DNA of 64,000 nt from a virus (Duplodnaviria; Heunggongvirae; Uroviricota; Caudoviricetes), in IMG/VR virus record IMGVR_UViG_3300024346_000025, positions 7,197 to 71,196 of that record; one strand, written 5' to 3'. Below, piece by piece: positions 1,592 to 44,900 of this stretch. A program made the translations under genes and the position numbers. The notes under the pieces are model-generated. The model had not been told where the DNA came from. It was given only the letters and a program-made list of their open reading frames with translations, and ran no database searches. The stretch's first letter is position 1, and every line of letters starts with the position of its first letter.

Positions 1592-1594
1592 GTT

Positions 1595-7578: not shown

Positions 7579-7597
7579 GTCTTTATTTCCTGAGACA

Positions 7598-7607: not shown

Positions 7608-7638
7608 CAAATAGCAAGGACAACTGAGGAGAAGTAGC

Positions 7639-8028: not shown

Positions 8029-8032
8029 TAGA

Positions 8033-8461: not shown

Positions 8462-8472
8462 GGATTAGAGCA

Positions 8473-8790: not shown

Positions 8791-8792
8791 TA

Positions 8793-9368: not shown

Positions 9369-9372
9369 TGTC

Positions 9373-9401
9373 TTGACAAATCCTCATAAGTATAGTACAA
9401 T
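9373..9401 (+). promoter_or_regulatory. sigma70-type promoter TTGACA-17-TACAAT
   Basis: TTGACA 9373-9378; TACAAT 9396-9401; followed by AGGAGG (9411-9416) and the ATG at 9422. Confidence 0.55.
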
Positions 9402-9421
9402 AGTGTACTTAGGAGGTAACA

Positions 9422-9706
9422 ATGACAACAACTACACCAGCAACACCCCAAGCCCACATCCGGCATTACTCTCAGGATGACGTTAATCGTCTAAAACAAC
9501 TAGTGACAGACGGTTGCACTATCATGCAAGAGACTAAGGACTTGAATGACGGCTTGAGTGATACGATCAAGGCAATTGCAGAAGAGATGCAAATTTCACC
9601 TTCCGTACTAAAGAAGGTAATTAGGGTTGCCTTCAAGCGTAGTCGCGATGAAGAGCGCACGAAGTTTGAAGAACTAGAAGATATCCTAGACACGCTTGGT
9701 CTATAA
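9422..9706 (+). CDS. hypothetical protein (94 aa)
   Basis: Strong promoter and RBS upstream. Confidence 0.55.
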   Translation: MTTTTPATPQAHIRHYSQDDVNRLKQLVTDGCTIMQETKDLNDGLSDTIKAIAEEMQISPSVLKKVIRVAFKRSRDEERTKFEELEDILDTLGL

Positions 9707-9708
9707 AG

Positions 9709-9993
9709 ATGACTCACTTTATCCGAGACGTCTGGTCATTCTGGAAGGAAACTTGGCGCCTCGATAAAGTATTATTCTTTGCAGAGGCTATAGGCACATT
9801 CTGCGGCATGACTGCGGCAGCAACGATGGGACTGCAAACGCCCAACCCTGACCTACCAGTCATCTATGCATTTTATCTTGCAAGTGGCATGCTTTTAGCG
9901 TATACTAGTTATATACGTCGAGCATCTTGGATGGTAGTCCTCATGTCGTTTTATGTGCTGACAACAATTATTGGAATAGGAAAACTCTTTTAA
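9709..9993 (+). CDS. small membrane protein (94 aa)
   Basis: Hydrophobic segments AIGTFCGMTAAATMGL… and MVVLMSFYVLTTIIGIG; its stop TAA overlaps the polymerase ATG (TAATG). Confidence 0.45.
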   Translation: MTHFIRDVWSFWKETWRLDKVLFFAEAIGTFCGMTAAATMGLQTPNPDLPVIYAFYLASGMLLAYTSYIRRASWMVVLMSFYVLTTIIGIGKLF

Positions 9994-14259: not shown

Positions 14260-15768
14260 ATGAAAGATTTATCAAAATTCAATCAAGACTACGCAACGTT
14301 CTTGCCTGCGGTCAGTGGATTTTACACAGAAATTTTAGGTAGAACCAAACACATAGACGGGTATGTTCCTGAGGGACGTGTGCCAGCAGGCTTTGAGAAT
14401 GGACTAGAGGGAATGAACTTTCTTGATCCAGATCAAGGATACTTCTTTTACGACAAGTGTCTTTACTCCGCTGGTCATGCGTATATGGACCTCGATCAAA
14501 CAGACAGACTAGAATGGATGATCCAGCATCGCGACCCGCGTGTTATGTGTCTTGGTGATTCGGGCGGATTCCAAATTGGTAAGGGCGTTATCAAATTTGA
14601 CTGGGAACGCTTTTACGAGAAGCCCGGTGATCTCGGTTATAAAGGCAAGGCAGATAAAGTTCGGCAAGAGATCCTAACGTGGCTAGAGCACACAGCAGAG
14701 TGGTCAATGATCTTAGACGTTCCGTCTTGGGCAACTACACGACCAGAGACAGGGCTGAAGAATTTTGAGGATTGCTTGAAGGCAACGCTACACAACAATG
14801 ATTATTTTGTAGAACACCGCGAAGGCAAGACTAAGTTCCTCAATGTGCTACAGGGTGTTCATCAGGAAGACGCTGACACATGGTATGAGGCGGTCAAAGA
14901 CTATCCGTTTGAAGGCTGGGCAATGGGCGGTAATACTTTGCGAGATGTGTCCATGTGTTTGCGCAGACTTATTATTATGCGTGACGAAGGCAAGCTTGAA
15001 GGCAAGGACTGGATGCACTTTTTGGGCACCTCACGTTTAGACTGGACAGTTATGTTGACAGCGTTGCAGCGTCAGTTACGCAAGCATTGTAACCCCAACC
15101 TCACAGTCAGTTTCGATTGTGCTAGTCCTTTTATTGCTACTGCTAACGGTCTTGTATACTCTCAAAACGTATTGACTAACGATAGGTTTAGTTATATAAT
15201 GGAAGGTTGCTTTGATGATAAATCATTAAAAGGCAGCACGATCCCGTTCCCGTTTGAGAGTGAGATCGGTAAGCGTCTTGTAGCTGGCGACATTTGCACA
15301 CTAGGTCCAGGTGACTTGAACAAGCGTGGTGATGTTGGTAAGACAAGCTGGGATAGTTTTAGTTACACTATGCTAATGGCGCACAATGTTTACGCACATA
15401 TACGGGCGGTACAGCGGTCAAACGCACTTGCAGACATTGAGTCAATTGAGTGTAACCCAGATTATTTGATGTGGCGTAAAGTAAAACGCAAAGACAAGTC
15501 TGCGGAACTTTCAAAATGGGTTCCACGTAACTTGCTTTACTTTAATAATTTTGTCGAGCGTCTATTTGATTCTCACAAGCCAATGACCATGATCGAAGAA
15601 GCTGGACCATTCTTACAAGACTTTAACAACAACCGAATTGAAGATGGTCATTCACCTCTGTTTAGGGACTTGTTCTCAGAAGAGGCTAGTGAGGCTGACG
15701 ATACAACGTATGATCGAGAGGATGATTCGTTGGATGGACTAGAAGAATTTATACGAAAGGAGACATAA
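14260..15768 (+). CDS. tRNA-guanine transglycosylase superfamily protein; DpdA-like DNA-guanine transglycosylase candidate (502 aa)
   Basis: LGDSGGFQIG matches the Tgt catalytic-Asp motif (DSGGFQ); VLQGVHQED resembles the Tgt GIVQGG region; sits beside QueD and QueE genes. No CxCxxC zinc motif seen. Confidence 0.55.
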   Translation: MKDLSKFNQDYATFLPAVSGFYTEILGRTKHIDGYVPEGRVPAGFENGLEGMNFLDPDQGYFFYDKCLYSAGHAYMDLDQTDRLEWMIQHRDPRVMCLGDSGGFQIGKGVIKFDWERFYEKPGDLGYKGKADKVRQEILTWLEHTAEWSMILDVPSWATTRPETGLKNFEDCLKATLHNNDYFVEHREGKTKFLNVLQGVHQEDADTWYEAVKDYPFEGWAMGGNTLRDVSMCLRRLIIMRDEGKLEGKDWMHFLGTSRLDWTVMLTALQRQLRKHCNPNLTVSFDCASPFIATANGLVYSQNVLTNDRFSYIMEGCFDDKSLKGSTIPFPFESEIGKRLVAGDICTLGPGDLNKRGDVGKTSWDSFSYTMLMAHNVYAHIRAVQRSNALADIESIECNPDYLMWRKVKRKDKSAELSKWVPRNLLYFNNFVERLFDSHKPMTMIEEAGPFLQDFNNNRIEDGHSPLFRDLFSEEASEADDTTYDREDDSLDGLEEFIRKET

Positions 15769-16522: not shown

Positions 16523-17011
16523 ATGTATAAAATTCTTTATTGGCCAGATCAAAGGTTGCGGGACGTTGCTGATGAGGTGACGGATTTTGCTGCGGCTGAG
16601 GACATTATAGCGCGAATGTTTGAGACAATGTACGCTGACAAAGGTATCGGTCTTGCTGCTACGCAGGTCGGTATTCCCTTACGCATCTTTGTTATGGATA
16701 CGGGATTAGATAAAATTGCGTTTATAAACCCAAAGATAATTGAACGTAATGGTACGATAACTCAGATGGAAGGTTGTCTTAGTTTCCCTGGTATTTTTGT
16801 GCCAATTGAACGAGCTGAATCAATAACTGTTCAATATCAGCTATTGACATGTGAAACAATAGAGCGTATACTGTATGGTACAGAAGCACAATGTGTACAG
16901 CATGAGATAGATCATCTTAATGGAATTGTCTTTTTTGATTATCTCAAAACAACTAAGCGCATGATGGCTGAAAACAAATTACGCAAAAAGTTAAAGGCAT
17001 TAAAGAAATGA
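16523..17011 (+). CDS. def: peptide deformylase
   Basis: Three Def motifs: GIGLAATQ, EGCLSFPG and HEIDHLNG. Confidence 0.85.
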   Translation: MYKILYWPDQRLRDVADEVTDFAAAEDIIARMFETMYADKGIGLAATQVGIPLRIFVMDTGLDKIAFINPKIIERNGTITQMEGCLSFPGIFVPIERAESITVQYQLLTCETIERILYGTEAQCVQHEIDHLNGIVFFDYLKTTKRMMAENKLRKKLKALKK

Positions 17012-25733: not shown

Positions 25734-25762
25734 TTGACTTTTAGGACATAAGATAGTATAAT
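25734..25762 (+). promoter_or_regulatory. sigma70-type promoter TTGACT-17-TATAAT
   Basis: TTGACT 25734-25739; TATAAT 25757-25762. Confidence 0.6.
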
Positions 25763-25812: not shown

Positions 25813-26127
25813 ATGATCAAGCGTCGCAAGACTGGCAATTCCACTGTTTGTCCTTTAACCGGCAACAAACTCTTCGAGTGGGAACTGTTTGATGATAAAG
25901 ATGAAGAGAACGTCGTGGGTATTGCCTACCCATCGTATAAGACCCGCACCCAGCGCGTCTTCCGCGCAGAAATGACCCTCAACGGGGTTACTGCAAGCAC
26001 CGAGAACGCCCGTTCTATTGGTGACGCTGTGAAGCAGATGCAAGCTACGATTGACGCAGGGCAACCTGTTGTTTCTACTGTGGTTTCTACTCCTGCAGAC
26101 GGTGCGACTGAGGCGGTTACCGCCTAA
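25813..26127 (+). CDS. hypothetical protein (104 aa)
   Basis: Start moved to the ATG at 25813, which has AGGAG 8 nt upstream; the track start at 25789 would leave almost no leader after the promoter. Confidence 0.5.
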   Translation: MIKRRKTGNSTVCPLTGNKLFEWELFDDKDEENVVGIAYPSYKTRTQRVFRAEMTLNGVTASTENARSIGDAVKQMQATIDAGQPVVSTVVSTPADGATEAVTA

Positions 26128-26134: not shown

Positions 26135-26170
26135 AAGGGCGGGGCTCAAATCCCGCCCTTAATCTTTTGT
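26135..26170 (+). terminator. rho-independent terminator
   Basis: AAGGGCGGG (26135-26143) / CCCGCCCTT (26152-26160), then AATCTTTTGTT. Confidence 0.55.
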
Positions 26171-26198
26171 TGACTTTTAACAAGAAAGATTATATAAT
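26170..26198 (+). promoter_or_regulatory. sigma70-type promoter TTGACT-17-TATAAT
   Basis: TTGACT 26170-26175; TATAAT 26193-26198; AGGAGAAG RBS before the ATG at 26231. Confidence 0.6.
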
Positions 26199-26230
26199 AC
26201 ACGTATTAACAAGCTTAGGAGAAGAAGCAA

Positions 26231-27451
26231 ATGGCACGGACAAGAGACGAAAATGCCCTCAGTTTTAACACGGTTTGCCCCAGAGATGCTGCGGCACTTC
26301 TGAGACACACTATGGCCGTTGGGCGCCCTGTAATGCTTTGGGGACCGCCCGGAATCGGAAAATCTGACATTATTGCTCAGATTGGTAAATCCCAAAATCG
26401 CCCAGTAATCGACCTTCGGTTGCTGCTAATGGAGCCCACAGACCTGAAGGGCATCCCCTATTACGACACGAAGACTGGCTTGATGCGTTGGGCTAAGCCT
26501 TCGGAACTTCCTACTATTGTGTCGGCTGAAGACGTTACCCTTGCTGAAAATACGCTGGCGCGTTTGGTTGATGACAAGGCCCCGGAAGAAGATATTAAGG
26601 CGGCTCGGCATCACCTCGAGGTGGTCGCTGGTAATTTTGCTTTGCAGAATGCAATCTTGTTCCTCGATGAGGTCAACGCAGCACCTCAGTCCGTTCAGGC
26701 AGCTGCCTACCAGCTGATCTTGAACCGCAAGATCGGTGAGTATATTCTGCCTAAGGGTGTGAGCATTGTCGCTGCTGGTAACAGAGAGACAGATAAGGCG
26801 GTTACTTTCCGTATGCCGTCGGCGTTGGCTAACAGGTTCGTCCACTTAGAGATGAAGGTTCGCTTTGATGATTGGTTCGATTGGTCAATTGACCACAGAG
26901 TGAAGTCAGACGTGGTCGGTTTCTTGAAGGCTCACCCTCACCGTTTGTTTGAGTTTGATCCTAAGAATGCCTCAAAGGCGTTCCCCACTCCTCGGTCTTG
27001 GGTGTTTGTTAGCGAGTTGATGAGTGACGACATGCCCGACAACCTCAACCAGTTCCTGGTTGCTGGTACGGTCGGTGATGGTCTTGCGCTGGAATTTATG
27101 CAGCACCGTCGTCTGAAGGACAGTCTGCCTTCGGTGGAAGACATCCTCAGCGGTCGTGTTACGAAGTTTGCGAACCCGGACAAGGTTGAGATTTCGGCAC
27201 TGTACTCGTTGGTGATCTCACTGTGTCATTCCTTGCAGGACTTTGCAGTTGACAACAAATCGGACAGCAAGGCTTGGGAAACAGCGACCACCAACTTCCT
27301 CGAGTTTACAATGAACAACCTGTCCAATGAGGTTGCGGTGTTGGCTGCGGTGACTGCGATTCGGAAATACAAGATTGATTTTGTATTTGGTTCGAAGGCG
27401 TTTGACAAGTTTTACGAGAAGTATGGCGAGTCTGTTAACGCTTACAACTAA
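26231..27451 (+). CDS. MoxR-family AAA+ ATPase (CobS-like)
   Basis: Walker A LWGPPGIGKSD; Walker B ILFLDEVNAA; sensor region AAGNRE. Confidence 0.8.
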   Translation: MARTRDENALSFNTVCPRDAAALLRHTMAVGRPVMLWGPPGIGKSDIIAQIGKSQNRPVIDLRLLLMEPTDLKGIPYYDTKTGLMRWAKPSELPTIVSAEDVTLAENTLARLVDDKAPEEDIKAARHHLEVVAGNFALQNAILFLDEVNAAPQSVQAAAYQLILNRKIGEYILPKGVSIVAAGNRETDKAVTFRMPSALANRFVHLEMKVRFDDWFDWSIDHRVKSDVVGFLKAHPHRLFEFDPKNASKAFPTPRSWVFVSELMSDDMPDNLNQFLVAGTVGDGLALEFMQHRRLKDSLPSVEDILSGRVTKFANPDKVEISALYSLVISLCHSLQDFAVDNKSDSKAWETATTNFLEFTMNNLSNEVAVLAAVTAIRKYKIDFVFGSKAFDKFYEKYGESVNAYN

Positions 27452-27474
27452 GCTACTGGTTCCCGGAGAGATAT

Positions 27475-28743
27475 ATGAGTTTTGATCGTTACAAGCAGGC
27501 TACCCCAGAAGAGAAGCTCTCACAGGCTAGGCTGTCTTTTATCCTCCAGCAGTCGCCATTCTTCGGCACGCTGGCACTACACCTAAAGCTGGTGGAGGCT
27601 GATTGGCTTCCTACAGCTGGTGTGGATGGAAAACATCTTTACTACAATCCTGAATTTGTTGGTCGGCTGAACCACGAAGAGTGCAAGTTCCTCATCGCCC
27701 ACGAAGTGATGCATTGTGTATACGAACATATGCTCCGTCGGAATGGTCGGGAACCTCGTTTGTGGAATTGTGCTGCGGACTACGTTATCAATTGGGAATT
27801 GAAAGAGATTGGTGTTGGTACGATCATCCCGCCCGAGAAGTTAGTTGATCCTGAGGTTCTGAAGAAGAACCCCAACTACATCCGTGACAACAAGGTCGGT
27901 GCTTTGATTGACCGTCGGTTTGCTGGTATGTCGTCTGAGGAAGTCTTCAAAATCCTAGACGATGAAAAACAAGAGCAAGGTGATTCGATGGATCAGCACA
28001 TTGAAGTGGTGTTTGGTCAGCCTGGTGAAGGTGATCCTTCTGGCAAGAATGGCCCAATCCCAATGACCAAGGATGAGATTGAGCGTCTGCCTGACGATAT
28101 CCGCAAGGCGGTTATGGATGCTGCTAAGATTGCTGAGGAGATGGGCGGCGCTGGTAACTTGCCTGGTGGTGTCCGTCGGCTGTTGGAGAAGTGGAATGAT
28201 TCTCAGATGGACTGGCGCGAGGTTTTGAACTGCATCATCCAGTCCTTGTTTAAGAGCGATTACACTTGGCAGCGCCCTTCGCGTAAGAGCTTCCAGTCTG
28301 GTTGCTACCTGCCTGGCATGAAGAACGACGAGCGTGTTAGCGTTGACGTTGCTATTGATACTTCTGGTTCAATGACTGCTAAGATGTTGGCTGACTTCCT
28401 CGGTGAGGTTCGCGGCATTATGGAACAGTTCCAGGACTTCAAGCTTCGCGTTTGGTGTTTTGATACTTCGACCTACACGATCCACACTTACGAAGCTGAT
28501 AACTTGGAAGACATTGACGATTTTGAAATGGAAGGCGGTGGTGGCACGATGTTTGAGTGTAACTGGGAAATGATGCGTGAGAATGAGATCATGCCCGACC
28601 AGTTGCTTGTGTTTACTGACGGTTACCCCTGTGGTTCATGGGGCGAGGAAGATTACTGTGATACAGCGTTTGTGGTTCATGGTAAAAAGGACATCATTGC
28701 CCCGTTTGGTGAGACTGTATACTACGAACGCGAGGAAGCATAA
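27475..28743 (+). CDS. VWA-domain protein with an N-terminal HExxH metallopeptidase-like domain (DUF2201-type MoxR partner; CobT-like)
   Basis: HEVMHCVYEH (HExxH); MIDAS motif VAIDTSGSM; follows the MoxR gene in the same transcriptional unit. Confidence 0.7.
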   Translation: MSFDRYKQATPEEKLSQARLSFILQQSPFFGTLALHLKLVEADWLPTAGVDGKHLYYNPEFVGRLNHEECKFLIAHEVMHCVYEHMLRRNGREPRLWNCAADYVINWELKEIGVGTIIPPEKLVDPEVLKKNPNYIRDNKVGALIDRRFAGMSSEEVFKILDDEKQEQGDSMDQHIEVVFGQPGEGDPSGKNGPIPMTKDEIERLPDDIRKAVMDAAKIAEEMGGAGNLPGGVRRLLEKWNDSQMDWREVLNCIIQSLFKSDYTWQRPSRKSFQSGCYLPGMKNDERVSVDVAIDTSGSMTAKMLADFLGEVRGIMEQFQDFKLRVWCFDTSTYTIHTYEADNLEDIDDFEMEGGGGTMFECNWEMMRENEIMPDQLLVFTDGYPCGSWGEEDYCDTAFVVHGKKDIIAPFGETVYYEREEA

Positions 28744-28746
28744 ATC

Positions 28747-29091
28747 ATGGCTAAGCGGTTCGCGATAACCGAACAACCCGAAGATAAAGAAAAAGCAGCC
28801 TTTATCAACGAACTAAAGGGTATTACATATCCTCGAGATATGTTTGGTGCCTTAATGGATATAGGTGATACAATTATTCTTGGTGGCGGGCAATGGGGTG
28901 CGAGCTTGTTTCTTGCTACAGTTATCCAATTCAATTATCTTATTGAGGACGGAACCTACCGATTTACATCTATTAGCGCGAAACGGCTTGGAAAAAAAGG
29001 TCGCAGATTGACTGGAAATCCTCGAGAATCCGTAATTATGAACGATGAAACCATCAATCAAATGCGCAAACACTTGAAATCTAAAGAGTAA
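28747..29091 (+). CDS. hypothetical protein (114 aa)
   Basis: Operon context only. Confidence 0.45.
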   Translation: MAKRFAITEQPEDKEKAAFINELKGITYPRDMFGALMDIGDTIILGGGQWGASLFLATVIQFNYLIEDGTYRFTSISAKRLGKKGRRLTGNPRESVIMNDETINQMRKHLKSKE

Positions 29092-29098: not shown

Positions 29099-29127
29099 TT
29101 GACTTTCCCCTTCACCTTTGCTATAAT
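29099..29127 (+). promoter_or_regulatory. sigma70-type promoter TTGACT-17-TATAAT
   Basis: TTGACT 29099-29104; TATAAT 29122-29127. Confidence 0.6.
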
Positions 29128-29148
29128 AGTGGTATATTAGGACTACAC

Positions 29149-30402
29149 ATGGGAAATAAGATGTCAAATTACGAGGTAACCCAAGGATTGAACGGTCAGG
29201 GCATAGTAAAGTCTTGGACTAAGGGTGTCAATTTTGAATCTCAGGCACGCGACCAGTTAAAGAACATTGCGTCACTGCCATTTATACATAGCCACGTTGC
29301 AGCAATGCCAGACGTTCATCTTGGTATTGGTGCTACTGTTGGATCGGTTATTGCAACCAAAGGTGCGATCATTCCTGCGGCTGTCGGCGTGGACATTGGC
29401 TGCGGCATGAACGCGATTCGTCTTTCGCTGAAGGCAGAAGACTTGCCAGATTCTTTGGTTAGCACTCGCCACGAAATCGAAAAGCTTGTTCCTGTTGGGC
29501 ACGAAGACCACAATCTTTCGCGGTTGGGTAGCAAGCATAACAGCGGCACAACCAAAATTCTTAACAACTATTTCGCACAGTTGGAACCTGGCTATAAGGC
29601 TTTGGTCGAAAAGCATCCAGCGATTGCGAAGATGGGTCGTGAATTAGACCAGCGCGTCTACCGTCAGATCGGAACGTTGGGTGGTGGAAACCACTTCATC
29701 GAATTGTGTCTTGACGAGGTCGGCGATGTGTGGGTTATGTTGCACTCGGGTTCGCGTAACCCAGGTAACTGTATTGGTCGCTATTTCATTGATCTTGCAA
29801 AGCAGGATATGGAGCGTCACTTCATTAGCTTGCCAGATAAGGATCTTGCATACCTTGTAGAAGGTACAGACCACTACGACGATTATGTAGAAGGTGTATC
29901 TTGGGCGCAGGATTTTGCATATCGTAACAGACAGGCAATGATGACGCTGGTTCTTACGGCGTTGCAGAACAAGCTGCCTCCGTTTACAATTACGAAGGAA
30001 GCGATCAACTGTCACCATAACTACGTGGCGATGGAAAACCATTTTGGTGCGAACGTACACGTTACGCGCAAAGGTGCAGTTCGCGCTCGCGTTGGCGACT
30101 ACGGAATCATTCCTGGTTCGATGGGCGCAAAGTCGTTCATCGTTCGCGGACTTGGCAACGCAGATTCGTTCCACTCTTGTTCTCACGGGGCAGGTCGCAA
30201 CCACTCGCGCTCGGCGGCTAAGAAGCTTTTCTCGGTGGAAGATCATGAGAAGGCAACGGCTGGTGTAGAGTGTCGAAAGGATGCTGGTGTGATAGATGAG
30301 ACTCCTTTGGCATACAAGGACATTGATGCTGTAATGGAGGCGCAGAAGGATTTGGTTGAGATTGTGCATACGTTGAAGCAGGTTGTTTGTGTAAAGGGCT
30401 AA
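29149..30402 (+). CDS. rtcB: RtcB-family RNA 3'-phosphate ligase
   Basis: PDVHLGIGATVG, GVDIGCGM, GGGNHFIEL and CSHGAGR motifs; 417 aa. The start could instead be the ATG at 29161. Confidence 0.85.
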   Translation: MGNKMSNYEVTQGLNGQGIVKSWTKGVNFESQARDQLKNIASLPFIHSHVAAMPDVHLGIGATVGSVIATKGAIIPAAVGVDIGCGMNAIRLSLKAEDLPDSLVSTRHEIEKLVPVGHEDHNLSRLGSKHNSGTTKILNNYFAQLEPGYKALVEKHPAIAKMGRELDQRVYRQIGTLGGGNHFIELCLDEVGDVWVMLHSGSRNPGNCIGRYFIDLAKQDMERHFISLPDKDLAYLVEGTDHYDDYVEGVSWAQDFAYRNRQAMMTLVLTALQNKLPPFTITKEAINCHHNYVAMENHFGANVHVTRKGAVRARVGDYGIIPGSMGAKSFIVRGLGNADSFHSCSHGAGRNHSRSAAKKLFSVEDHEKATAGVECRKDAGVIDETPLAYKDIDAVMEAQKDLVEIVHTLKQVVCVKG

Positions 30403-30406: not shown

Positions 30407-30712
30407 ATGAGCGTGTTGGTACAGTTTGAACGATCGGAAAAGGCAATGGCGCTATTGACTGCTGGTAAGGCATTGATGGTACAGGTTGAGTTTCGGAATA
30501 ATGAGACTTACTCTGATATGAAGCATGTCCTTGCACAACTCGGATACGATACTGGCAGAGATTTTTATCCAGCCACAATCCTGTTTGGGATTGGCAACAT
30601 GCCTGGACATTATGTTGTTGCGGCCAACAATAAAATCGTTTGCGGTTTACATGGTGACATATTTTACATAGACGAAGAAGATTTTGTTACAGATGGGGAC
30701 GACGTTGTTTAG
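30407..30712 (+). CDS. hypothetical protein (101 aa)
   Basis: Operon context only. Confidence 0.4.
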   Translation: MSVLVQFERSEKAMALLTAGKALMVQVEFRNNETYSDMKHVLAQLGYDTGRDFYPATILFGIGNMPGHYVVAANNKIVCGLHGDIFYIDEEDFVTDGDDVV

Positions 30713-30980
30713 ATTTTATTGCGAAGTACCTACTAATTCTGATACGCAATGGCTCACATTCTTGAATGCGGAACCGCAAATTCCTCGTTGGGGGATTCCG
30801 TATGGATTCCTACTAGAAAAATCTAAGCGCGTTTGGGTGCAGCCCCCCGATGGCGCGGTATATTATTATAATCCCAGTGAGATGAATCCGACTGGCGCAC
30901 CAATAGATATGAAGGAATTTTTTACTGTGAAGATGCGTTGCTTAGATTTTGACTCAGTATTACAGACCTACGTAACATAA
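30684..30980 (+). CDS. hypothetical protein (98 aa); paralogue of the next ORF
   Basis: Shared motif WVQPPDGAVYYYN…MKEFFTVKMRC. Confidence 0.45.
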   Translation: MLQMGTTLFRFYCEVPTNSDTQWLTFLNAEPQIPRWGIPYGFLLEKSKRVWVQPPDGAVYYYNPSEMNPTGAPIDMKEFFTVKMRCLDFDSVLQTYVT

Positions 30981-31222
30981 TGACTAGATATTATTGTGAA
31001 ATTTGCGAGCATAGCAATTCTTCTTATCCTAAGTGGATCACGTTTCAGGATGAAGCTGGTATTTATCCTTACAGGGTTATAGGAGAATCTTGGCGTGTAT
31101 GGGAACAACGACCTAATGGATCAGTTCGCTTCTATAAGAATAGGGAAGGACCTGAGATGAAAGTAGATATGAAGGAATTTTTTATAGTGAAGATGAAGTG
31201 TGTTTTTTACCCGAACAATTAA
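30980..31222 (+). CDS. hypothetical protein (80 aa); paralogue of the previous ORF
   Basis: WEQRPNGSVRFYKN…MKEFFIVKMKC; the N-terminus CEICEH adds a Cys pair. Confidence 0.45.
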   Translation: MTRYYCEICEHSNSSYPKWITFQDEAGIYPYRVIGESWRVWEQRPNGSVRFYKNREGPEMKVDMKEFFIVKMKCVFYPNN

Positions 31223-31244: not shown

Positions 31245-32774
31245 ATGAACGAAGTAACACAAGCAGGGCTTTTCGGGAATATTGATATTCTTGCAACCCT
31301 ATTTTGGATTGTCGGCACAATTTTTGTCGCTTTCCTTGTTTACCTACCAATCAAGCTCGCTAAAGCTTATCGTAGGGTCGTGGAGCCGAATGAGATTCAC
31401 GTTGTACGGTCTCGGAAAGGCACCGTAATTTACGGACAGCAAGATGCTGAAGATGCGAAAGCGTCCGTAAACAGCGACGAGAATATGATTCCAGAAGCGT
31501 CAAGCAATAGCTACTACGAGTGGCCGAGCTGGTGGCCTGTCATTGGTGTTAGCACTGTAAAGCTACCGCTAGCGGTATTCCCTGAGGCTTTGAATGATTA
31601 TGATGCTTATGACATTGGTAAGGTGCCGTTCGTGGTTGATATTGTGGCGTTCTTCCGCATCTCAGACCCGCAGACCGCAGCCAAGCGTGTGTCATCTATG
31701 AATGAGCTACAGTCTCAGTTGAAGTCAATTTTGCAAGGTGCGGTACGTACCATTCTTGCAAAGCATGAGATTGAAGAGATTATGACAGAGCGTAGCACGT
31801 TTGGTCTAAAGTTTACGGAAGAAGTGCGCGACCAGCTTAAAGCTTGGGGTATCTCAAACGTCAAAAACATTGAGCTAATGGATATTAGAGACGGTGAAGA
31901 GTCAAGGACTGTTAGCAATATTATGGCGAAGAAGGAATCCTTGATTGAGAAAGAGTCACGCACAGAAGTGGCTGCTAACAAGAAGGATGCTAAGATCGCT
32001 GAAATTGACGCAGAACGTGCGACAGATGTGCGTAAGCAGGAAGCGTTGCAGTTGGTCGGTGAGCGTACCGCGGAGAAAGATAAAATCGTTGGTATTGCAA
32101 ATCAAAAAGCACAGCAGGAAATTCAGACGGAAGGTAAGATCACAGCAGAGCGCGATATGGCTGTTGCTGAGGTCGAGCAGGTTCGAACGGCTGAGATTGC
32201 GAAGATGGTTCGCGTTGTGAAGGCTGACGAGCAGCGGCAGGTCGATATTACTGAGACTGAAGGTAAGAAGCAGCAGACGATTTTGCTTGCGGAAGGTCAG
32301 TTGAAGGATCAGCAATTGAAAGGTGAGGGTATCCTCGCTGTTGGTACGGCGTCGGCAGAAGCGAAGCGTTTGGCGGAAATGGCGCTGGTGTCTCCGCAGA
32401 TTGCGTTGGCTACTGAGATTGGTGAGAACGAAAACTACCAGACCTACCTCATTAGGATTCGTGAGGTCGAGAAGGACCAGGCTGTGGGTGTACAGCAGGC
32501 TATGGCGTTGCAGGACGCGGGCATCAAGGTCATTGCTAACACTGGCAATGTCTCACAGGGTGTCTCCAACGTTATGGAACTGTTCTCTCCTAAGGGCGGA
32601 ACTGCTATAAGTGGTGCAGTTGAAGCATTTGCTCAGACGCCACAGGGCGAGGCAATCTTGAAGGCATTGGGCATGGCACAGCCGCCAGCCGAGCCTAAAG
32701 TAACTCCGCTACGCGCAGAAGCTGGTGAGCCGGCCACAAAGAAGGTCAGTAACAAACCTAAGCAAACGAAGTAG
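31245..32774 (+). CDS. SPFH / band-7 (flotillin-like) membrane protein with a long coiled coil (509 aa)
   Basis: N-terminal TM helix LATLFWIVGTIFVAFLVYLPI, then an SPFH-like domain, then an E/K/A/Q-rich coiled-coil region. Confidence 0.6.
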   Translation: MNEVTQAGLFGNIDILATLFWIVGTIFVAFLVYLPIKLAKAYRRVVEPNEIHVVRSRKGTVIYGQQDAEDAKASVNSDENMIPEASSNSYYEWPSWWPVIGVSTVKLPLAVFPEALNDYDAYDIGKVPFVVDIVAFFRISDPQTAAKRVSSMNELQSQLKSILQGAVRTILAKHEIEEIMTERSTFGLKFTEEVRDQLKAWGISNVKNIELMDIRDGEESRTVSNIMAKKESLIEKESRTEVAANKKDAKIAEIDAERATDVRKQEALQLVGERTAEKDKIVGIANQKAQQEIQTEGKITAERDMAVAEVEQVRTAEIAKMVRVVKADEQRQVDITETEGKKQQTILLAEGQLKDQQLKGEGILAVGTASAEAKRLAEMALVSPQIALATEIGENENYQTYLIRIREVEKDQAVGVQQAMALQDAGIKVIANTGNVSQGVSNVMELFSPKGGTAISGAVEAFAQTPQGEAILKALGMAQPPAEPKVTPLRAEAGEPATKKVSNKPKQTK

Positions 32775-32782: not shown

Positions 32783-32814
32783 AGTCCGGCGGGGAAACTC
32801 GCCGGACTTCTTTG
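32783..32814 (+). terminator. rho-independent terminator
   Basis: AGTCCGGCG / CGCCGGACT stem with loop GGGAAACT, then TCTTTG. Confidence 0.6.
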
Positions 32815-32824: not shown

Positions 32825-33178
32825 ATGACTGATACTGAACGCAACAAAAAACTTTTTATAAAAAAATTAGGTGGCACACCTATCGGCCATGATATTTTTG
32901 GCCGTGACGTTTTTGAAGGTGATTTTATTGTGTATGCCCCTAGTGGTGGTTTCTCAGGCACAAGCATGAAGGTCGGCAAGATTGTTCGGGTCGAGACTAA
33001 CCAGTTGCGCTATGGCATTACCTATGTACTACACCTGGAAACAGCCAGAAAAAGGTCAGGGTCTTGGGTATTAGGTGGTAAGGGTCGGTTTGAAAATCTA
33101 GCGGGCGCTGCAATGCTGTGGACTGACCCTATTCCAGAGGTTATTGCATTGTTTGACACTGATAAGAATGGTAAATAA
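32825..33178 (+). CDS. hypothetical protein (117 aa)
   Basis: GGGAATGAC RBS-like sequence upstream. Confidence 0.5.
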   Translation: MTDTERNKKLFIKKLGGTPIGHDIFGRDVFEGDFIVYAPSGGFSGTSMKVGKIVRVETNQLRYGITYVLHLETARKRSGSWVLGGKGRFENLAGAAMLWTDPIPEVIALFDTDKNGK

Positions 33179-38979: not shown

Positions 38980-41900
38980 TTATAGTGCGTTACCTGCTTC
39001 TGCATTTATGAATACTGCTTGCGCCGTTGTAGAAGCATTTAATCCACCAGCATTTTGTTGATCTACTGACCATGTTAGCGTATTGGCGCCGGTTATGCGA
39101 CCCGCTGTATTGTAAATTGGGGCTGAAGGTAGTTCTAAAGCTTCAGTATCAAATATACCTGTTGCTGTCGCTGTTCCGTCTCCTGAACCTGTTAAGTCAA
39201 AATTCACCGTGCCAGTTTCTGCTGATCCTGATCCGCGAGATATTATACTAATCGCTGTAATTGCGCCGCTGCCATCGACCGCAGCTACCTCAGCCAGCGG
39301 ATGATAGAACTCAAATTCTGATCCAGAACCTGAGGCTGTAGTAATTGAATCCACTGTAGTGAATGTGTATCCACTACCTCGGTTGCTGAATGTTAGCGAT
39401 GTTATTCCGCCTAGACCATTTATAGTACCAACAGTAGCAGCTCCACTACTACCATCTCCGCCAAAGTTAATGGTATCTCCGACCAAATAATTTATACCAC
39501 CGTTAGTAATTACAGGATCTGGGATTTGAGTTGGGATTGGCGCCGCATCACCCACGCTATACCCTGCAGCACCATCTGTAATAGTAATTATACTCAGCTC
39601 ACCAACAGGTATGATTGTCGTGCTATATTCGCGAGCAATTGCACCACCACTTGTAACATTGAGTGTATCACCATTAGCCATATTAGCAGTAAATAAATTA
39701 TCTGTCCCGTCACTAAAAATTATAGTACCATCAAAGTTATCTTGCCATATACCGTCTGTTCCACTATAAATGCTTGCGCTTGTTGTATCAACCCAGTATA
39801 CTTCTGGGAGTGCAATTTCCTGTGAGGCTCCACCTGCAAACATTTTGACGCCCGAATCATGTGCGCTTAGTGTTGTACCAAGCGTACCTCTGCGGACACC
39901 TAGTAGCAAATTATTTACTTCATCAGCACCATATGCCTCAATGCGTTCGTTGCCGATCCATGCTATTAGCGGTGTTGTTAGTGTTGGGGCAGTTGCTGAC
40001 TCGTATAACAACGTCACGTCTGTTACTGCAATTATATCGTCTGTTAGACCAATTGCTGCTATAGTGGTTGTGCTTGCGCTATCAGCGTTACGTATGTAAT
40101 GCGAGTTATGCACTGTATCGTAATGTATGCGGAAGCTTGTTGATCCATTGGCCATATTCATTGTTGCTACATTAGCTAGTGTACCAGCTGTTGTTATGGT
40201 TGTTATTTGTTCGTTTACACTGGTTCCGCCCATAGTCTCAACAACATAAATAAAACGGTAAGTAGATCCGTCGTCATAAGTATGATCTACTGTGTATGTT
40301 CCGTCTTTTGTTGCATCAAAGCTATTCACAACGGTTATAGAATCACCCGGAGAGAGTGTTAGTACATCCGCACAATTAAGTACGCTATATGGGATTCTTA
40401 TTCCCCATAACGGAGCATCTGCTAGATCATTACGGATGGCTATTGGCCCACCTATGCTAACGTTAGTGATGTTTAAACCCGTAACAGCATCGGTTTGTAT
40501 GGTTACAGGATTTGCTGGATACACAGAATATGTTCCAGGCTCAGTAATATCGAATGTATCTATTGCACCTGTTGAAATATTTACGCCTGTTACAGTTATC
40601 TGTAATGGAGTAGTAAATGTTCCGCCTTGCGCGGTTAGTACGTCATCAATTGCAAAGCTAGTACCACCATCTACGATCGCATAGGGAATATCTGTTGTAT
40701 CAGCAACTAGCACAAACGATTCTCTTGGATCAAGCGGAACCATTTCATCTGTTATGCCTTCATTGACTTGCGGGTTGATTAGATCACCAGCTTCAATATA
40801 TGTAAACAACTGGATGTTATTTGTGCCAACACCCGGTGCCGTAATAAATACAAGCTTGCCTGCAATGAAGAAGTAGTCCACGTTCAAACGCATTTCGACA
40901 CCGTCAACCACAGCAAACATAAAGTAGGTTGGCGTTGTGGTAACGATTGCAAATTCTCGTGTCGTGCCGTCTCCGTCAAATTCTTCTTCTGCAGGAATAT
41001 CAGCAAATAGGTTCAGACCATCAGCAGCATCACCTAAACCGTCAAGCAATGTAATGCTATTGTCATTGTCGTTGGAGTCCCAACCGATCTGATCCCAAGG
41101 GAGGCTATCCCATGGTTGTGTATCACCCGCTTTGAATACAAGCGATGTAACACTTCCGTCAGTGCCCGACCCTCCCAACAATAGCACAGGATCAATGGTT
41201 GGTTTTTGCACGTATGCACCGCCGCTTAATAGTTTCAATCCTGTTATCTCTCCGCTACCACCAATAGATAGAACACGGAACGCAGCGGGTGCCTTTGGAA
41301 TACCACTACCAGCGTCTAGATATAATGTATCACCAACAACATAACCCGTACCAGCCGCAGAAATGTCTGCGCTAATCAACGATGGGAAGCTACCAAATAG
41401 CGTGTTTTGTAGTGTAATACCAGTAAAGTCTGCTGCAAATTCTTGGATGATTCTCTCATTCAATGCTGCTACTGCTTCGATCTCAGTCTGCGTAGGCGCC
41501 ATGCCCACAGCAGTTACAGAATAACTACTTAGTAGGTCAGGGTCTAAACCTGTTGCAAGGTCAGTAATGTCTGCCAACAAATCTCTTTGTTGTGCAGCGT
41601 AACGTCCAGCAGCACCTAAGCGCACCAGTGTCGCACCAGCGTCTAATGTACTGTAACCATCATACGTTGCAGATCCCATACCTAACGCTTTTACAATACG
41701 TGCCTCAGCAATACTAAAATCGCCGCCGCGCACTCTATCGTAATACAATGTCATACTCATATTACGTAGGATTTCCTCGGCTGAACCTGGCAGCACATCT
41801 GTGTCTGCTGCACGTACAATGGTGTAGTCGCGTAGCTTGGAGTGGTATGGCTTCGCCTCCGTAATATAATCTACGGCGCTGTCAAACGGATCATTTTGAT

Positions 41901-44900
41901 AAACGCTATTTTGAGACAGACCTTGTCCTGTTTGTTTCAAATATAAATATGTAGTCTTGAATACCCAGTCCAGATCCTCTTGTTCTTTGAATATATAATT
42001 TAGTAGTGCAAAGAATGTAAGGTTGTTGTCAACTTCGCGTTCACCTACAAACACTTCAGTTTGTAATGCCGTGATCAACTCACGCAACTCTAAAGCTTCA
42101 GGAAGATTTGGGTTGTTTTCCCAAATTATATCTAACAATTCTAACCTCGTTGCTTCACGACCAACCAACGTATACGTATCTGTTGGTCCATCATAAGCAT
42201 ATAGACTATACCGTGCACCAGTGACCTTGACAATTTCACCATGGTACGGGTTTGCAAGCCCATCTAATGCGGAGACCGCTGTTACTTGCCTTGTAGGAAT
42301 TGTGTTGGTGCTGTCGTATCCATCCTCATACCAGTTTACCCACTCCCACAACGTGTTAGTGGTCATGCTTGCGTTCCATGCGGAGTTTTCATCACGTAGC
42401 AAAATTGGAGATACTAGCTCGTTCACTTTTTGCACAAATATTTTTCTTGCAGTCTGTATGTCCATAAACATAGACTGTAGTGGGCGCCGTTTGATGCCGT
42501 ACTTGTTGCTGTCGCTTAGTGTTGGGTCTGGTACAATCAGGTAGCCCATTGAAGAATCGGCTGCTGATGGTAGCGCATTGTTGAAGTTATACAACGGATA
42601 TTCGTCGTTACCCGCTGTGGAATTGTTTATAGGTACTAGGTCTGTAAATCCTACAAGCGAATCGACCATCTTATCCCAGATGTGCGTGTTCACCGTATAA
42701 TTGCTGTCACCTTCACGCGCTAGTTCCCACTGTACGTGACGCTTGTCTTCCATCTCTAGCTTGCTAAAGTTGATCTGGAATACGTTGTCACTGTCAGTAA
42801 ACACGCCCTCAACACCAGCAAACATAAATCCTGTTTGACTGACTGGGCTGAACCATGCGTAGTTTTGTGCGTGAGGGTTAGCTATCAATCTTGCTACCTC
42901 ACTGGAGGCTAGTGTCCTGTCTTTGCGGTTAGGAACGGTCGTAATACCCTTTACCCAGAAATAGTAGAAGGTGCGCACTGTCTCTAACAGGTCGTCCCAC
43001 TCTTCCTTTTCCACGTAGTCGGTCGTATTACGCACTGTGCCGTCACCAGTATAGCTCGCTGGAACCACTGTGCTTCGTGTCCACTCATAAATGTCAATCG
43101 AAGAACCAGTGAACAGCGCACCCCAGTTGTCTCTGCGGTACTCATCGTCGCCCTGCTCGTAATACAAATATGCGCATGTGGATAAATCCCACCATGCTAG
43201 GCCAACTTGATTGCCGCCAAATGTTGTACCAGTGTTTATCAAACGTGCGTCACTAGCATTTGTGTATCGTGCTGGATCGCGCCTTGTCTTGTAGGCGATA
43301 TTTAGATCCGCAGGACCAGGAATGGTTCCTTTGAACGGGTCATACAAAGGCAATTGCGCAAGCGTGTCTTTAGTATCGTACTCATAAACAAAGCCGCTGC
43401 GGAATTTTTCCGTGTCAACAAGATTGCTCTGTGTGCGCGTTACTGTAAACGCTGGAGTAGACTGAACCTCAGCAAAGCTTAGGCCGTTGTCGTCTATCCA
43501 CACAGTGGCTACACTGCTAGCCGTTATGTGCGCTGCCTGTGCGTCCCTTGCTGTCTCATCAGCGAACCGTACGTCTAACAGGCTCATGTACGCAATGGAC
43601 GTAGGCACTGTTTCTACGGTTGGGAATGTGTCGTCCGCTACTGGAACGCCATCCTTGCTAATAATGTAGTTGGGGTGTGCAACGTCAACTGCATAGTCGT
43701 ACAGTGTGTTGCCAACGTAAATCTTGCCTACGCCTGTTGCGCTATTTCCTAGGAAGGTTAGGTTTCCAACATCCTCATACGGGGCCACAGACATCGTGAC
43801 CTTGCCCGCTGCTGCAACATAGCCTACGTCGTTTATGCCTAGCTGCGTTATTGTGCCAGCGTAGCTGTATAATGCGTATACTGCCCAATCCTCATTTTCT
43901 GATTTTGCGACCCAAATTGTTTCACCGTTTGTGCTTGGTGGTATTGGTGCCGCTGCTAAACCGTCAATTGCGTCTACGTCAAATACCATATAGTCAATGT
44001 CATCTGTATGCACAAATCCTGCGTTAGGAATTTGTGTCGAGACGTCTGCTAGTGCAATTGTAGGCCACAATTCAGTGCCAACTTTACATGCTACGTTGCT
44101 GGGTTTAATCAACCAACGCGCATTGTCATCTGCGTCTATCACAATTACATCATCGTTTGCTATGTCAGTGTCAATGTCGTATACCATTGTAGCCACTGCA
44201 CGATCACTTGTCGCCGTTACAGCACCGTTTATTAATACCTGCGGTGTGCTTGTGTAACCACTACCGTTGTTTAGCATGTCAATGCGTGATAGGTAACCGT
44301 CAGAATCGAGTATAGCTGTCGCTGTTGCGCTTGAACCACCGCCACCAGTAAACGTAACTGCTGGGGCTGTTGTCCATACGTTGCTGGAGCTTACTATGTT
44401 TACCGCGCTTACACTTGCTGTAGCAGTTGGGTCTTGTGCTTGACCTGGGTAAGACAATACCACCAGTTGTGGGTCGCCCTTGACCTCGTTAGCATGGATT
44501 AGGAATTCAGTTATGTTGCTATTGCACACTGGACCAAACTCGCCCAATTTTAATGCCCACTCGCCATACACTAATAGTTCTTGACCTACGTCTGTAACAA
44601 TCTCATTGCGCTCTAGCTTTTTAATGGCCTGTAGCGTACCTTTCTGGCGTGTCATGCCCTTGTAAAACTGGAACTGTGCGTCGTCATGTAGACCTAAGTC
44701 GTTAAAGTATCCGCGCTCCTCAAAACCAATGAGGTGTCGTGCTGTGTCTTCAATTTGCGGGTTGTCTAGGAACGATTCTGTGTCATGGTAGTCACGGATG
44801 CTGTTGACCATGTTCTCAAAGTTTGGCACTAGCCCAGTGTCTGTAACTAGGTAGCCAGGTGCTTCAAGCTTGCCGATCCAGTCTAACGTCTTGCGACCGT

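Follow-up and report, generated by a model that had tools for sequence, protein, structure and literature searches.

An E. coli-type RtcB RNA ligase gene in an uncultured T4-like marine phage, with a probable role in RNA repair

The stretch of DNA analysed here (hereafter the window, 64,000 nucleotides) looks phage-derived and carries T4-type portal, baseplate and gp25-like genes. Its B-family DNA polymerase is ~40% identical to the polymerases of jumbo myophages, and megablast against GenBank found no near-identical phage, only distant jumbo relatives. The carrier is an uncultured, T4-like (jumbo-related) marine myophage. Among its genes is one for an RtcB ligase, which would belong to a + strand block of early and replication genes; the same block also carries a DNA polymerase, a 5'-3' exonuclease and SbcCD-like genes. 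The span considered below, 29099-30402, begins with the first base of a -35 hexamer and ends with the last base of the rtcB stop codon. The features in and around it are the following.

26170-29091, + strand: upstream block, comprising a promoter-like site (26170-26198), MoxR, DUF2201-VWA and orf114
26231-27451, + strand: MoxR-type AAA+ ATPase gene, upstream of rtcB
27475-28743, + strand: gene for a DUF2201 metallopeptidase-VWA protein, upstream of rtcB
28747-29091, + strand: orf114, upstream of rtcB
29099-29127, + strand: sigma-70-type promoter-like site (-35 TTGACT at 29099-29104, 17-nt spacer, TG at 29119-29120, -10 TATAAT at 29122-29127)
29128-29148, + strand: short predicted leader; an AGGA Shine-Dalgarno-like motif (29139-29142) stands 6 nt 5' of the ATG
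29149-30402, + strand: rtcB, 417 aa (ORF call, Pfam, PHROG, catalytic residues, dN/dS)
30407-30712, + strand: orf101, a small protein, starting 4 nt past the rtcB stop
30684-31222, + strand: orf98 (30684-30980) and orf80 (30980-31222), tandem paralogues of 39% identity with a common DMKEFFxVKMxC motif
31245-32774, + strand: SPFH/Band-7 flotillin-like gene, 509 aa (Pfam Band_7, 3.6e-14; JGI name 'flotillin')
32783-32808, + strand: G+C-rich hairpin with a 9-bp stem directly 3' of the SPFH stop, a possible end of the transcription unit

The product of rtcB matches Pfam PF01139 from end to end (profile positions 1-426 of 426, E 1.5e-129, 433.4 bits against a cutoff of 27) and phrog_1075, 'tRNA splicing ligase' (3.9e-145), and along its whole length it shares 60% identity with the 408-aa RtcB of the E. 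coli rtcR-rtcB-rtcA locus, which bears out the identity proposed in an earlier note on this DNA. Residues D82, C85, H182, H199, H290, H346 and R350 align with E. coli D75, C78, H168, H185, H281, H337 and R341, and the first six of them with P. horikoshii D95, C98, H203, H234, H329 and H404; from published Pyrococcus and E. coli work, we take these positions to be the metal-binding Asp/Cys/His set and the guanylylated histidine. The catalytic residues are invariant in an alignment of 11 sequences from diverse phage and bacterial RtcBs. By homology, the protein would be a GTP/Mn2+-dependent ligase of the E. coli type, joining RNA 3'-phosphate or 2',3'-cyclic-phosphate ends to 5'-OH ends, and the intact active site lends support to the sealing of cyclic-phosphate to 5'-OH ends that the same note had predicted. 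The start codon at 29149 was chosen by gene callers on 15 contigs, with an in-frame ATG at 29161 as a possible alternative.

Compared with seven copies in related phages of the same clade, rtcB shows dN/dS values of 0.05-0.09 even though synonymous sites are near saturation. Purifying selection on the gene is thus strong, and phages have kept the enzyme functional. The best cellular homologues, from marine Gammaproteobacteria MAGs, are ~65% identical. Recent transfer was also sought in the composition of rtcB and rejected, as its G+C content resembles that of the conserved genes around it and shows no anomaly.

The promoter-like site matches the sigma-70 consensus at 11 of 12 positions and is TG-extended. 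It begins 8 nt past the stop codon of the upstream ORF, a sequence scan of the interval between the two found no terminator-like site, and the predicted transcription start lies at about 29134. The pattern TTGACT-N17-TATAAT, allowing at most one mismatch, occurs seven times in the window against 0.71 expected, a count reached in none of 100 shuffles; all seven sites are on the + strand, and six of them stand 30-60 nt 5' of an ORF start. A T4-type late promoter motif, TATAAATA, was tried and rejected for lack of enrichment (2 found, 3.9 expected). With near-consensus -35 and -10 hexamers at 17-nt spacing directly 5' of the gene, rtcB resembles phage early genes of the sigma-70 consensus class, and the 29099-29127 site would act as a sigma-70 promoter. 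It is identical in six metagenome contigs of the same species and absent 5' of rtcB in relatives whose RtcBs are 79-83% identical (L009/L010, L012, L013); since it is not conserved among relatives, early and strong expression is no general property of rtcB. The earlier note had spoken of a dedicated consensus promoter: a near-consensus site does exist, but 'dedicated' overstates the case, because five ORFs follow the site, no terminator precedes it and relatives do without it.

The five ORFs headed by this site are tightly packed and consist of rtcB, three small ORFs and the flotillin-like SPFH gene, the putative last gene of the transcription unit, whose product has an N-terminal transmembrane helix (hydrophobic at about residues 15-33) and a long A/E/K/Q/R-rich region. 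The hairpin at 32783-32808 was flagged by the terminator scan for the - strand only; its + strand tail, TCTTTGAG, has 4 T in 8, and termination on the + strand is therefore uncertain at this place. Upstream, transcription from the 26170 site probably reads through into rtcB. None of the small ORFs could be assigned to a family, orf101 being without a match in Pfam, PHROG, NCBIfam or PADLOC and the orf98/orf80 pair without one in Pfam, PHROG or NCBIfam, and the genes of the unit gave no meaningful match to PADLOC defence-system models. Homologues of orf101 lie 3' of rtcB in three relatives (L009, L013, L108); orf101 was rejected as an RtcB partner, as a further contig (L226) carries a homologue without rtcB.

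The order MoxR-DUF2201-small ORFs-rtcB is kept in L009/L010, L013, L108 and L111. In phage Phosso and four IMG/VR contigs (L187, L205, L212, L243), an Rnl1 gene is found 1.4-4 kb 3' of the same MoxR-DUF2201 pair, accompanied in two of the five (Phosso, L212) by an R2K ATP-grasp gene. One slot is occupied by RtcB in the clade of the window and by Rnl1 in sister phages, which gives some support to the analogy with T4 Pnk/Rnl drawn earlier. The MoxR-DUF2201 pair itself is present in 80 of 80 DUF2201-centred viral loci, RtcB in none of them, and 75 of the 80 are without any RNA ligase; no ligase was found beside the pair in the annotated relatives PA5oct, Vibrio 2.275.O, GAP32 and SCTP-2. As the pair is common without RtcB and mostly stands without an RNA ligase, MoxR and DUF2201 were rejected as RtcB-specific partners.

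Phage RtcBs are already well known and routinely annotated (PHROG 1075), with 687 GenBank phage records and at least 591 IMG/VR contigs, and the idea of a phage RtcB is thus not new. Their distribution is patchy and accessory: over 80 diverse viral RtcB loci no conserved neighbour was found, the largest BLAST cluster comprising 4 of the 80. Some other viral RtcBs adjoin TROVE/Ro-like or Rnl2 genes, which is consistent with RNA repair.

Searches for RNAs and for further repair enzymes were negative around the gene. ARAGORN found no tRNA genes in the window, in 10 kb on each side or in related loci, so that the portion of the genome covered gives no indication that tRNAs encoded by the phage are repaired. 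No Rfam family matched the window at the gathering threshold, and between 28700 and 33300 a search at E values up to 10, which a divergent RNA could escape, gave one chance-level sRNA match only. RtcA, archease, Pnkp, Rnl, RlaP and TROVE were likewise absent from the window by Pfam, and there is therefore no multi-enzyme repair island that would make a repair role self-evident.

On balance, we consider it probable that this gene is an accessory gene of the phage encoding a catalytically competent RtcB of the E. coli type, and that the enzyme most likely reseals RNA broken in the course of infection. Host sigma-70 RNA polymerase would probably transcribe rtcB from 29099-29127, in addition to read-through from 26170, as the first gene of a unit of ~3.7 kb that would continue with orf101, orf98, orf80 and the SPFH gene. 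By homology, His346 would be guanylylated with GTP and Mn2+, the GMP would be passed to an RNA 3'-phosphate (generated, where required, from a 2',3'-cyclic phosphate by ring opening), and the 3' end would then be joined to a 5'-OH end, so that a separate kinase/phosphatase would be unneeded. The most likely substrates would be tRNA or rRNA of the host, perhaps also transcripts of the phage, cut by metal-independent ribonucleases, with anticodon nucleases, HEPN/Abi proteins, toxin RNases and CRISPR-associated RNases as candidates. The logic would be that of T4 Pnkp/Rnl1, carried out by one-enzyme chemistry. We infer the timing of expression, the substrates and the benefit in counter-defence from sequence, from which a role of this RtcB in tRNA repair against host defence appears plausible. 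Such a role agrees with a published comparative-genomics view, according to which the RtcB and ATP-grasp ligases of jumbo phages 'ligate cleaved tRNAs' (PMC7824862); in bacteria, RtcB reacts to tRNA and rRNA that nucleases have damaged and works on them (PMC7790460, 10.1101/312249). A search of the available literature found no experimental study of any phage RtcB, including tests of counter-defence.

The SPFH gene raises the possibility, which we hold only tentatively, that RtcB works with a co-transcribed flotillin-like membrane protein that would give RNA repair a scaffold or a location at the membrane, as a phage counterpart of predicted bacterial RtcB/Band-7 modules. In a broader form, to which we would give no greater credence, SPFH flotillins of phages would be membrane scaffolds for RNA repair by any ligase (RtcB, Rnl1 or Rnl2), and in the clade of the window the membrane-anchored flotillin would form a two-part repair module with RtcB. 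The two genes share a strand, the 842 nt between them contain no strong terminator, and the pair recurs in the clade relatives L107, L108 and L111/L112. However, the distance varies from 0.8 to 4.3 kb with variable small ORFs in between, the SPFH gene is absent 3' of rtcB in L012, and it is not seen within the sequence covered for L009 and L013. Outside of the clade, the flotillin family of the window occurs in 0 of 80 diverse viral RtcB loci and any Band_7 gene in 1 of 80 (large ORFs within 3.5 kb), although in the unrelated phages phiCbK and IMG/VR L031 a single small ORF separates rtcB from a short Band-7 gene of another, lipoprotein-type kind. A flotillin of 62% identity lies inside an RlaP/Rnl2/cREC/HAD_SAK island in L109. 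After 90% deduplication, an RNA-repair gene is found within 10 kb in 15 of 52 SPFH-centred against 5 of 72 DUF2201-centred viral loci (Fisher p=0.002), and a ligase in 11 of 52 against 5 of 72 (p=0.029), an enrichment that relies on one control gene, seed-based detection and phylogenetically non-independent loci. SPFH and RNA-repair genes may merely share accessory-gene islands, and neither ARAGORN nor Rfam detected a tRNA-like or Y-RNA-like element. In bacteria, RNA-repair genes lie near the closest flotillin homologues at only one of 80 loci, and a bacterial origin of the RtcB-flotillin link was rejected on that count. Should a functional link between SPFH and RtcB nevertheless be real, it would point to a spatial organisation of RNA repair that is so far outside the accepted picture: it could put repair where membrane-delivered RNase toxins or infection-site defence nucleases do damage, would give the SPFH family in viruses a function, and would carry the RtcB/Band-7 prediction over from bacteria to phages, with no tRNA-like RNA required.

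It is less likely again that RtcB serves the phage's own RNA metabolism, either by resealing RNAs nicked by phage endoribonucleases of host shutoff or mRNA processing, or by processing or circularising phage transcripts. The position of rtcB among early, replication and host-takeover genes with an early-type promoter site would suit such a function, as would the strong purifying selection, which is expected of a routinely used enzyme, and RtcB enzymes are reported to have housekeeping roles, for instance in the splicing of archaeal and eukaryotic tRNA and mRNA (PMC3400036). However, neither a phage RNase nor a tRNA with an intron nor any further candidate substrate turned up in the window and its flanks, and the patchy accessory distribution, together with the interchange with Rnl1, suits a conflict-driven function better than core processing.

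An action of RtcB on DNA ends, capping or joining DNA 3'-phosphates in replication or repair rather than repairing RNA in vivo, appears very unlikely. The replication and SbcCD-like genes of the block speak in its favour, and E. coli RtcB can reportedly act on DNA 3'-phosphate ends in vitro, according to work of the Shuman laboratory; yet neither the sequence nor the neighbourhoods indicate DNA, the genes that recur beside viral RtcBs have to do with RNA (Rnl2, TROVE), and the alternative gene of the same slot, Rnl1, is an RNA ligase. Finally, the notion of a passenger from the bacterial host without a role in infection, with which the closest cellular homologues would be consistent as a sign of acquisition, was already disfavoured and is highly improbable in view of the low dN/dS over phage relatives diverged to synonymous saturation, the invariant catalytic residues, the synteny conserved in the clade and the unremarkable G+C content.

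This rtcB is chiefly one more well-preserved example beside the hundreds annotated in phages, and it indicates that RNA end-sealing is an investment made by an uncultured but abundant T4-like marine phage. Discovery of tRNA-cutting defence systems is rapid at present, and the value of this rtcB is as a test case for the counter-defence role that is widely assumed. It is somewhat more informative than the average phage RtcB on two counts: the RtcB/Rnl1 interchange in a conserved slot, and the presence of RtcB in one putative operon with an SPFH gene whose viral relatives tend toward RNA-repair neighbours.

Among known systems, E. coli RtcB is a close characterised likeness, similar in size and with every catalytic residue aligned; its chemistry, GTP/Mn2+-dependent sealing of 3'-phosphate or 2',3'-cyclic-phosphate ends to 5'-OH ends, is presumed to be identical. 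Unlike in the E. coli rtc operon, the phage-borne rtcB stands without rtcA and without RtcR/sigma-54 control (no RtcA or RtcR Pfam match among the window ORFs), with a sigma-70 consensus site 5' and small ORFs and an SPFH gene 3'. T4 Pnkp and Rnl1, which counter the PrrC anticodon nuclease, share the proposed logic of restoring RNA with 2',3'-cyclic-phosphate/5'-OH ends. Their fold and mechanism are unrelated to those of RtcB, which is a single enzyme that requires no end-healing and depends on GTP where they use ATP. A Pnkp gene was not detected in the window. The RtcB2-PrfH module for 16S rRNA repair also sets a ligase of the RtcB family against an RNase toxin (PMC9223846, PMC13166195), whereas the RtcB of the window falls below the cutoff of TIGR03073, the model for PrfH-coupled RtcBs (129 against 271.8 bits), and has no PrfH-like neighbour. 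An RtcB-archease system of the archaeal/eukaryal kind is not apparent either, as the flanking ORFs match only AAA, DUF2201 and Band_7 in Pfam. Neither TROVE nor Y RNA of a Ro60(TROVE)/Y-RNA/RtcB module was found in the window. That module exists at other viral RtcB loci (L059, L077).

The predicted bacterial RtcB/Band-7 (SPFH)/b7a-tRNA modules also bear comparison. In some bacteria, Band-7 adjoins RtcB together with an RNA that resembles a tRNA (Burroughs and Aravind, 2016, as reported in 10.1101/312249), and PaFlo8, an SPFH protein of P. aeruginosa, is located inside the rtc locus (PMC13086221). The window is like these modules in having an SPFH/Band-7 gene downstream of RtcB on the same strand and unlike them in having no tRNA-like RNA detectable by ARAGORN or Rfam at its locus. 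Its SPFH protein is of the long flotillin type, whose bacterial homologues are not linked to RtcB and whose viral homologues adjoin Rnl1 or Rnl2 more often than RtcB. Lastly, annotated phage RtcBs (gp240 of Caulobacter phage phiCbK, gp31 of Pseudomonas phage pf16, Bordetella phage PHB04 and those of many mycobacteriophages) belong to the same family, the best of them being 58-64% identical to the RtcB of the window, and are likewise stand-alone accessory genes amid small early ORFs. The window phage differs from their carriers in having no near DNA match among GenBank phages, and the MoxR-DUF2201 slot and the flotillin-type SPFH partner are specific to its clade.

The rtcB product is confidently predicted to be an active RtcB-type 3′-phosphate/5′-hydroxyl RNA ligase. 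It covers the whole Pfam RtcB profile (PF01139, E 1.5e-129, 433 bits), matches the “tRNA splicing ligase” family PHROG 1075 (3.9e-145), and shares 60% identity along its entire length with Escherichia coli RtcB, encoded in the rtcR-rtcB-rtcA locus; the earlier note's naming of the gene is thereby borne out. Residues D82, C85, H182, H199, H290, H346 and R350 align with E. coli D75, C78, H168, H185, H281, H337 and R341, the set also aligns with Pyrococcus horikoshii D95, C98, H203, H234, H329 and H404, and these catalytic residues are invariant among 11 diverse RtcBs aligned from phages and bacteria. In published structural and mutational work the aligned D, C and H residues are the metal ligands and the guanylylated histidine. 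Compared with seven related phage copies, rtcB has a dN/dS of 0.05-0.09, with synonymous sites near or at saturation. The PrfH-coupled RtcB subfamily was ruled out, as the score against its model TIGR03073 (129 bits) lies below the cutoff of 271.8, and no intein was found in the protein.

The source phage is an uncultured, T4-like, jumbo-related myophage. GenBank phages contain no near DNA match to the window, and its B-family DNA polymerase shares ~40% identity with its counterparts in Phosso, Atu_ph07, Vibrio 2.275.O and 121Q/Rak2-like jumbo phages. Baseplate wedge and hub proteins are encoded in the window, and T4-type portal, T4 baseplate, gp25-like and SbcCD-like genes, ClpB, DnaJ and a T4-type spanin lie just outside it. 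The DnaJ and ClpB-type disaggregase genes stand side by side beside the spanin gene (L021 5805-8894, ~1-4 kb 5′ of the window start; L-numbers designate comparison loci). Two further ORFs are exceptionally long:

38980-50997, − strand: 4005-aa ORF, with only a weak CBM_5_12 carbohydrate-binding match
51013-55395: baseplate-wedge-like ORF of 1460 aa, adjoining the 4005-aa ORF

The former presumably encodes a giant tail, baseplate or adhesin protein. An identical RtcB protein is encoded on 15 metagenome contigs (up to ~100 kb) in ENA, JGI and Logan assemblies. Its closest cellular homologues, like those of the SPFH protein, come from metagenome-assembled genomes of marine Gammaproteobacteria, a hint at host range. 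A peptide deformylase gene, an auxiliary gene typical of marine phages, is located at 16523-17011 (+ strand, Pfam 7.8e-48).

The rtcB gene sits in the early/replication block of this lytic-type myophage, among the following features:

26231-28743, + strand: MoxR-type AAA+ ATPase and DUF2201 metallopeptidase-VWA protein
29099-29104, + strand: −35 hexamer TTGACT, directly 5′ of rtcB
29119-29120, + strand: TG at the end of the 17-nt spacer
29122-29127, + strand: −10 hexamer TATAAT
29149-30402, + strand: rtcB, 417 aa
31245-32774, + strand: flotillin-like SPFH/Band-7 gene, 509 aa, last of the putative rtcB unit
32783-32808: G+C-rich hairpin 3′ of the SPFH gene, a terminator for the − strand only according to the scan
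12949, 15172, 20184, 25734, 26170, 29099 and 61950, + strand: near-perfect TTGAC[TA]-N17-TATAAT sites

The interval 29099-30402, reported by the earlier note as rtcB with a dedicated consensus promoter, is bounded exactly by the −35 hexamer and the stop codon. The site matches 11 of 12 sigma-70-type consensus positions, and a short leader carries the Shine-Dalgarno motif AGGA 6 nt 5′ of the ATG. The window contains seven copies of TTGACT-N17-TATAAT with up to one mismatch (0.71 expected), a count not attained in any shuffle; all sites are on the + strand and six lie 30-60 nt 5′ of ORF starts, unlike the one at 15172, which falls within a long ORF (14260-15768). The − strand of the window, which holds the structural-gene block, is devoid of TTGAC[TA]-N17-TATAAT sites. 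The rtcB ORF is thus genuine, and a credible promoter of the sigma-70 type does precede it.

The promoter does not, however, appear to be dedicated to rtcB. Its −35 hexamer starts 8 nt past the stop codon of the preceding ORF (28747-29091), and the terminator scan found no terminator-like site between it and the MoxR/DUF2201 genes, which have their own consensus promoter at 26170 with a strong terminator (26135-26160) ahead of it. Downstream, orf101 follows rtcB after 4 nt, then come orf98, orf80 and the SPFH gene, with gaps of at most 22 nt or overlaps; the + strand tail of the hairpin beyond them reads TCTTTGAG. Six contigs of this phage species have an identical promoter; 5′ of rtcB in the relatives L009/L010, L012 and L013, whose RtcBs are 79-83% identical to that of the window, it is absent. 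In L012, rtcB begins 2 nt after the preceding gene. The 29099 site is thus best read as one member of an early-type promoter class of the phage, boosting a unit of five genes into which upstream transcription also reads through.

Several small genes nearby deserve mention. A one-gene unit on the + strand comprises a consensus promoter (25734-25762), a 104-aa ORF (25813-26127) and the terminator at 26135-26160; homologues of this ORF occur in L009, L013 and L111, and no family has been assigned to it. Between rtcB and the SPFH gene, orf98 and orf80 (30684-31222, +) are tandem paralogues of no known family that share 39% identity and a DMKEFFxVKMxC motif. Both orf114 (28747-29091, +), just 5′ of the rtcB promoter, and orf117 (32825-33178, +), just 3′ of the SPFH hairpin and with a weak DUF7205 match, resemble DUF7205-like ORFs of related phages, so that distant paralogues flank the rtcB-SPFH block.

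Phage RtcB is a very ordinary gene. By tblastn it is present in 687 GenBank phage records (the best 58-64% identical to the window's), including mycobacteriophages, Bacillus, Listeria and Caulobacter phiCbK-like phages, Pseudomonas, Ralstonia and Erwinia jumbo phages, and haloviruses, most already annotated as RtcB or tRNA splicing ligase; IMG/VR contains at least 591 relatives (591 of 600 among the pattern matches listed). According to a jumbo-phage review based on comparative genomics, RtcB and ATP-grasp ligases “ligate cleaved tRNAs”, and the various ligases probably deal with damage inflicted by different RNase effectors (PMC7824862). The RNA-repair interpretation of the earlier note is therefore the standard one, and no study in the literature searched puts a phage RtcB to an experimental test.

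Across 80 diverse viral RtcB loci, BLAST clustering revealed no recurring neighbour family, the largest cluster spanning four loci, which indicates that viral RtcB is mostly a stand-alone gene. Where recognisable neighbours are present, they are other RNA-repair components: among 137 large ORFs at most 3.5 kb from rtcB at these loci, a Pfam scan picked out four Rnl2-type ligases, two TROVE/Ro-like proteins and one Band_7 protein (L031). The TROVE/Ro-like genes lie directly 5′ of rtcB (L059 8674-9969, L077 1743-3053), an adjacency of a Ro60-like gene and RtcB known from bacteria as the Ro/RtcB arrangement. The L077 gene includes a VWA domain, and both viral contigs also carry tRNA genes.

Within the clade, the order trypsin-like protease, glutaredoxin, MoxR AAA+, DUF2201, small ORFs and rtcB is kept in L009/L010, L013, L108 and L111. 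The MoxR/DUF2201 pair nonetheless belongs to the core of a far broader group of phages, and was rejected as an RtcB partner: the pair is present in 80/80 DUF2201-centred IMG/VR loci and RtcB in 0/80, and PA5oct, Vibrio 2.275.O, GAP32 and SCTP-2 have the pair and no adjoining ligase. A virion-assembly chaperone role has been assigned to it (PMC7824862). Judging by its Pfam domains, the label “HNH endonuclease” that PHROGs gives DUF2201 looks like a misannotation that has spread. Sinorhizobium phage Phosso (L001 8790-10851) and four IMG/VR contigs (L187, L205, L212 and L243) carry an Rnl1-family RNA ligase 1.4-4 kb 3′ of the same MoxR/DUF2201 pair; in Phosso and L212 the ligase adjoins an R2K ATP-grasp gene. 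Two unrelated RNA ligases thus share one variable slot in sister lineages, which looks like in-place displacement of one type by the other.

A real functional link between RtcB and the SPFH protein, which possesses a transmembrane helix at its N terminus and an extended charged helical region, seems unlikely. SPFH homologues do occur 3-4 kb 3′ of rtcB in L107, L108 and L111/L112, but the spacing is variable, L012 has no SPFH gene next to rtcB, and the window's flotillin family is found in 0/80 diverse viral RtcB loci. In phiCbK, a “band 7 lipoprotein” gene is 5′ of rtcB with one 68-aa ORF between, and in L031 a Band_7 gene is 3′ of it with one 58-aa ORF between; these short lipoprotein-type proteins share marginal similarity at best with each other and none detectable with the window flotillin, so that the adjacency arose more than once, with at least two unrelated SPFH types next to rtcB in other phages. 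A flotillin 62% identical to the window's is encoded in L109 (203-kb contig) among RlaP, Rnl2-type ligase, cREC, VWA_CoxE and HAD_SAK, a gene set (1-12474) that looks like an RNA-repair island. Another apparent island, in L268 (5640-12993, binned as a Pseudobdellovibrionaceae metagenome-assembled genome), combines HAD_SAK, flotillin, Rnl2 and TROVE; besides the window, L107, L108, L109, L111, L026 and L031 are listed for SPFH association with rtcB or RNA repair. Neighbourhoods of 69 flotillin-centred and 80 DUF2201-centred IMG/VR loci, deduplicated at 90% identity, were searched by phmmer (E<1e-5) with our own RtcB, Rnl1, Rnl2, RlaP, cREC, HAD_SAK, TROVE and R2K seeds. Any repair gene lay within 10 kb in 15/52 flotillin against 5/72 DUF2201 loci (Fisher p 0.002), and an RNA ligase in 11/52 against 5/72 (p 0.029), values that rest on a single control gene and non-independent loci. 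Only 1/80 bacterial flotillin loci had repair genes nearby.

Counter-defence RNA repair is a reasonable putative role for the window RtcB and the textbook expectation; an SPFH-coupled module, housekeeping processing, DNA-end chemistry and carriage as a passenger gene are its rivals. In the repair reading, the rtcB unit would be transcribed early by host RNA polymerase, and RtcB, self-guanylylated at His346, would reseal 2′,3′-cyclic or 3′-phosphate RNA ends to 5′-OH ends. Such ends are the signature of metal-independent RNases such as anticodon nucleases, colicin-type tRNases/rRNases, MazF-type toxins and HEPN/CRISPR-associated RNases, and resealing would keep the host translation apparatus usable. 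Because no phage tRNA genes were found in the ~84 kb examined, host tRNA/rRNA or phage mRNAs are likelier substrates. What lifts this rtcB slightly above routine annotation is the exchange of ligases within a conserved slot, together with an SPFH association that is unexplained.

Among known systems, RtcB stands beside a Band-7 protein and a predicted tRNA-like RNA in some bacteria, according to the account of Burroughs and Aravind (2016) given in 10.1101/312249, and the SPFH protein PaFlo8 is encoded within the rtc locus of P. aeruginosa PA14 (PMC13086221). The window resembles these precedents in encoding RtcB near an SPFH protein and differs in having no detectable tRNA-like RNA, a lack that counts against a functional link between RtcB and the SPFH protein. 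The likeness drawn by the earlier note, to T4 Pnk/Rnl, gains support from the shared slot, which argues for functional equivalence: where sister phages carry an Rnl1-family ligase, the window phage carries RtcB.
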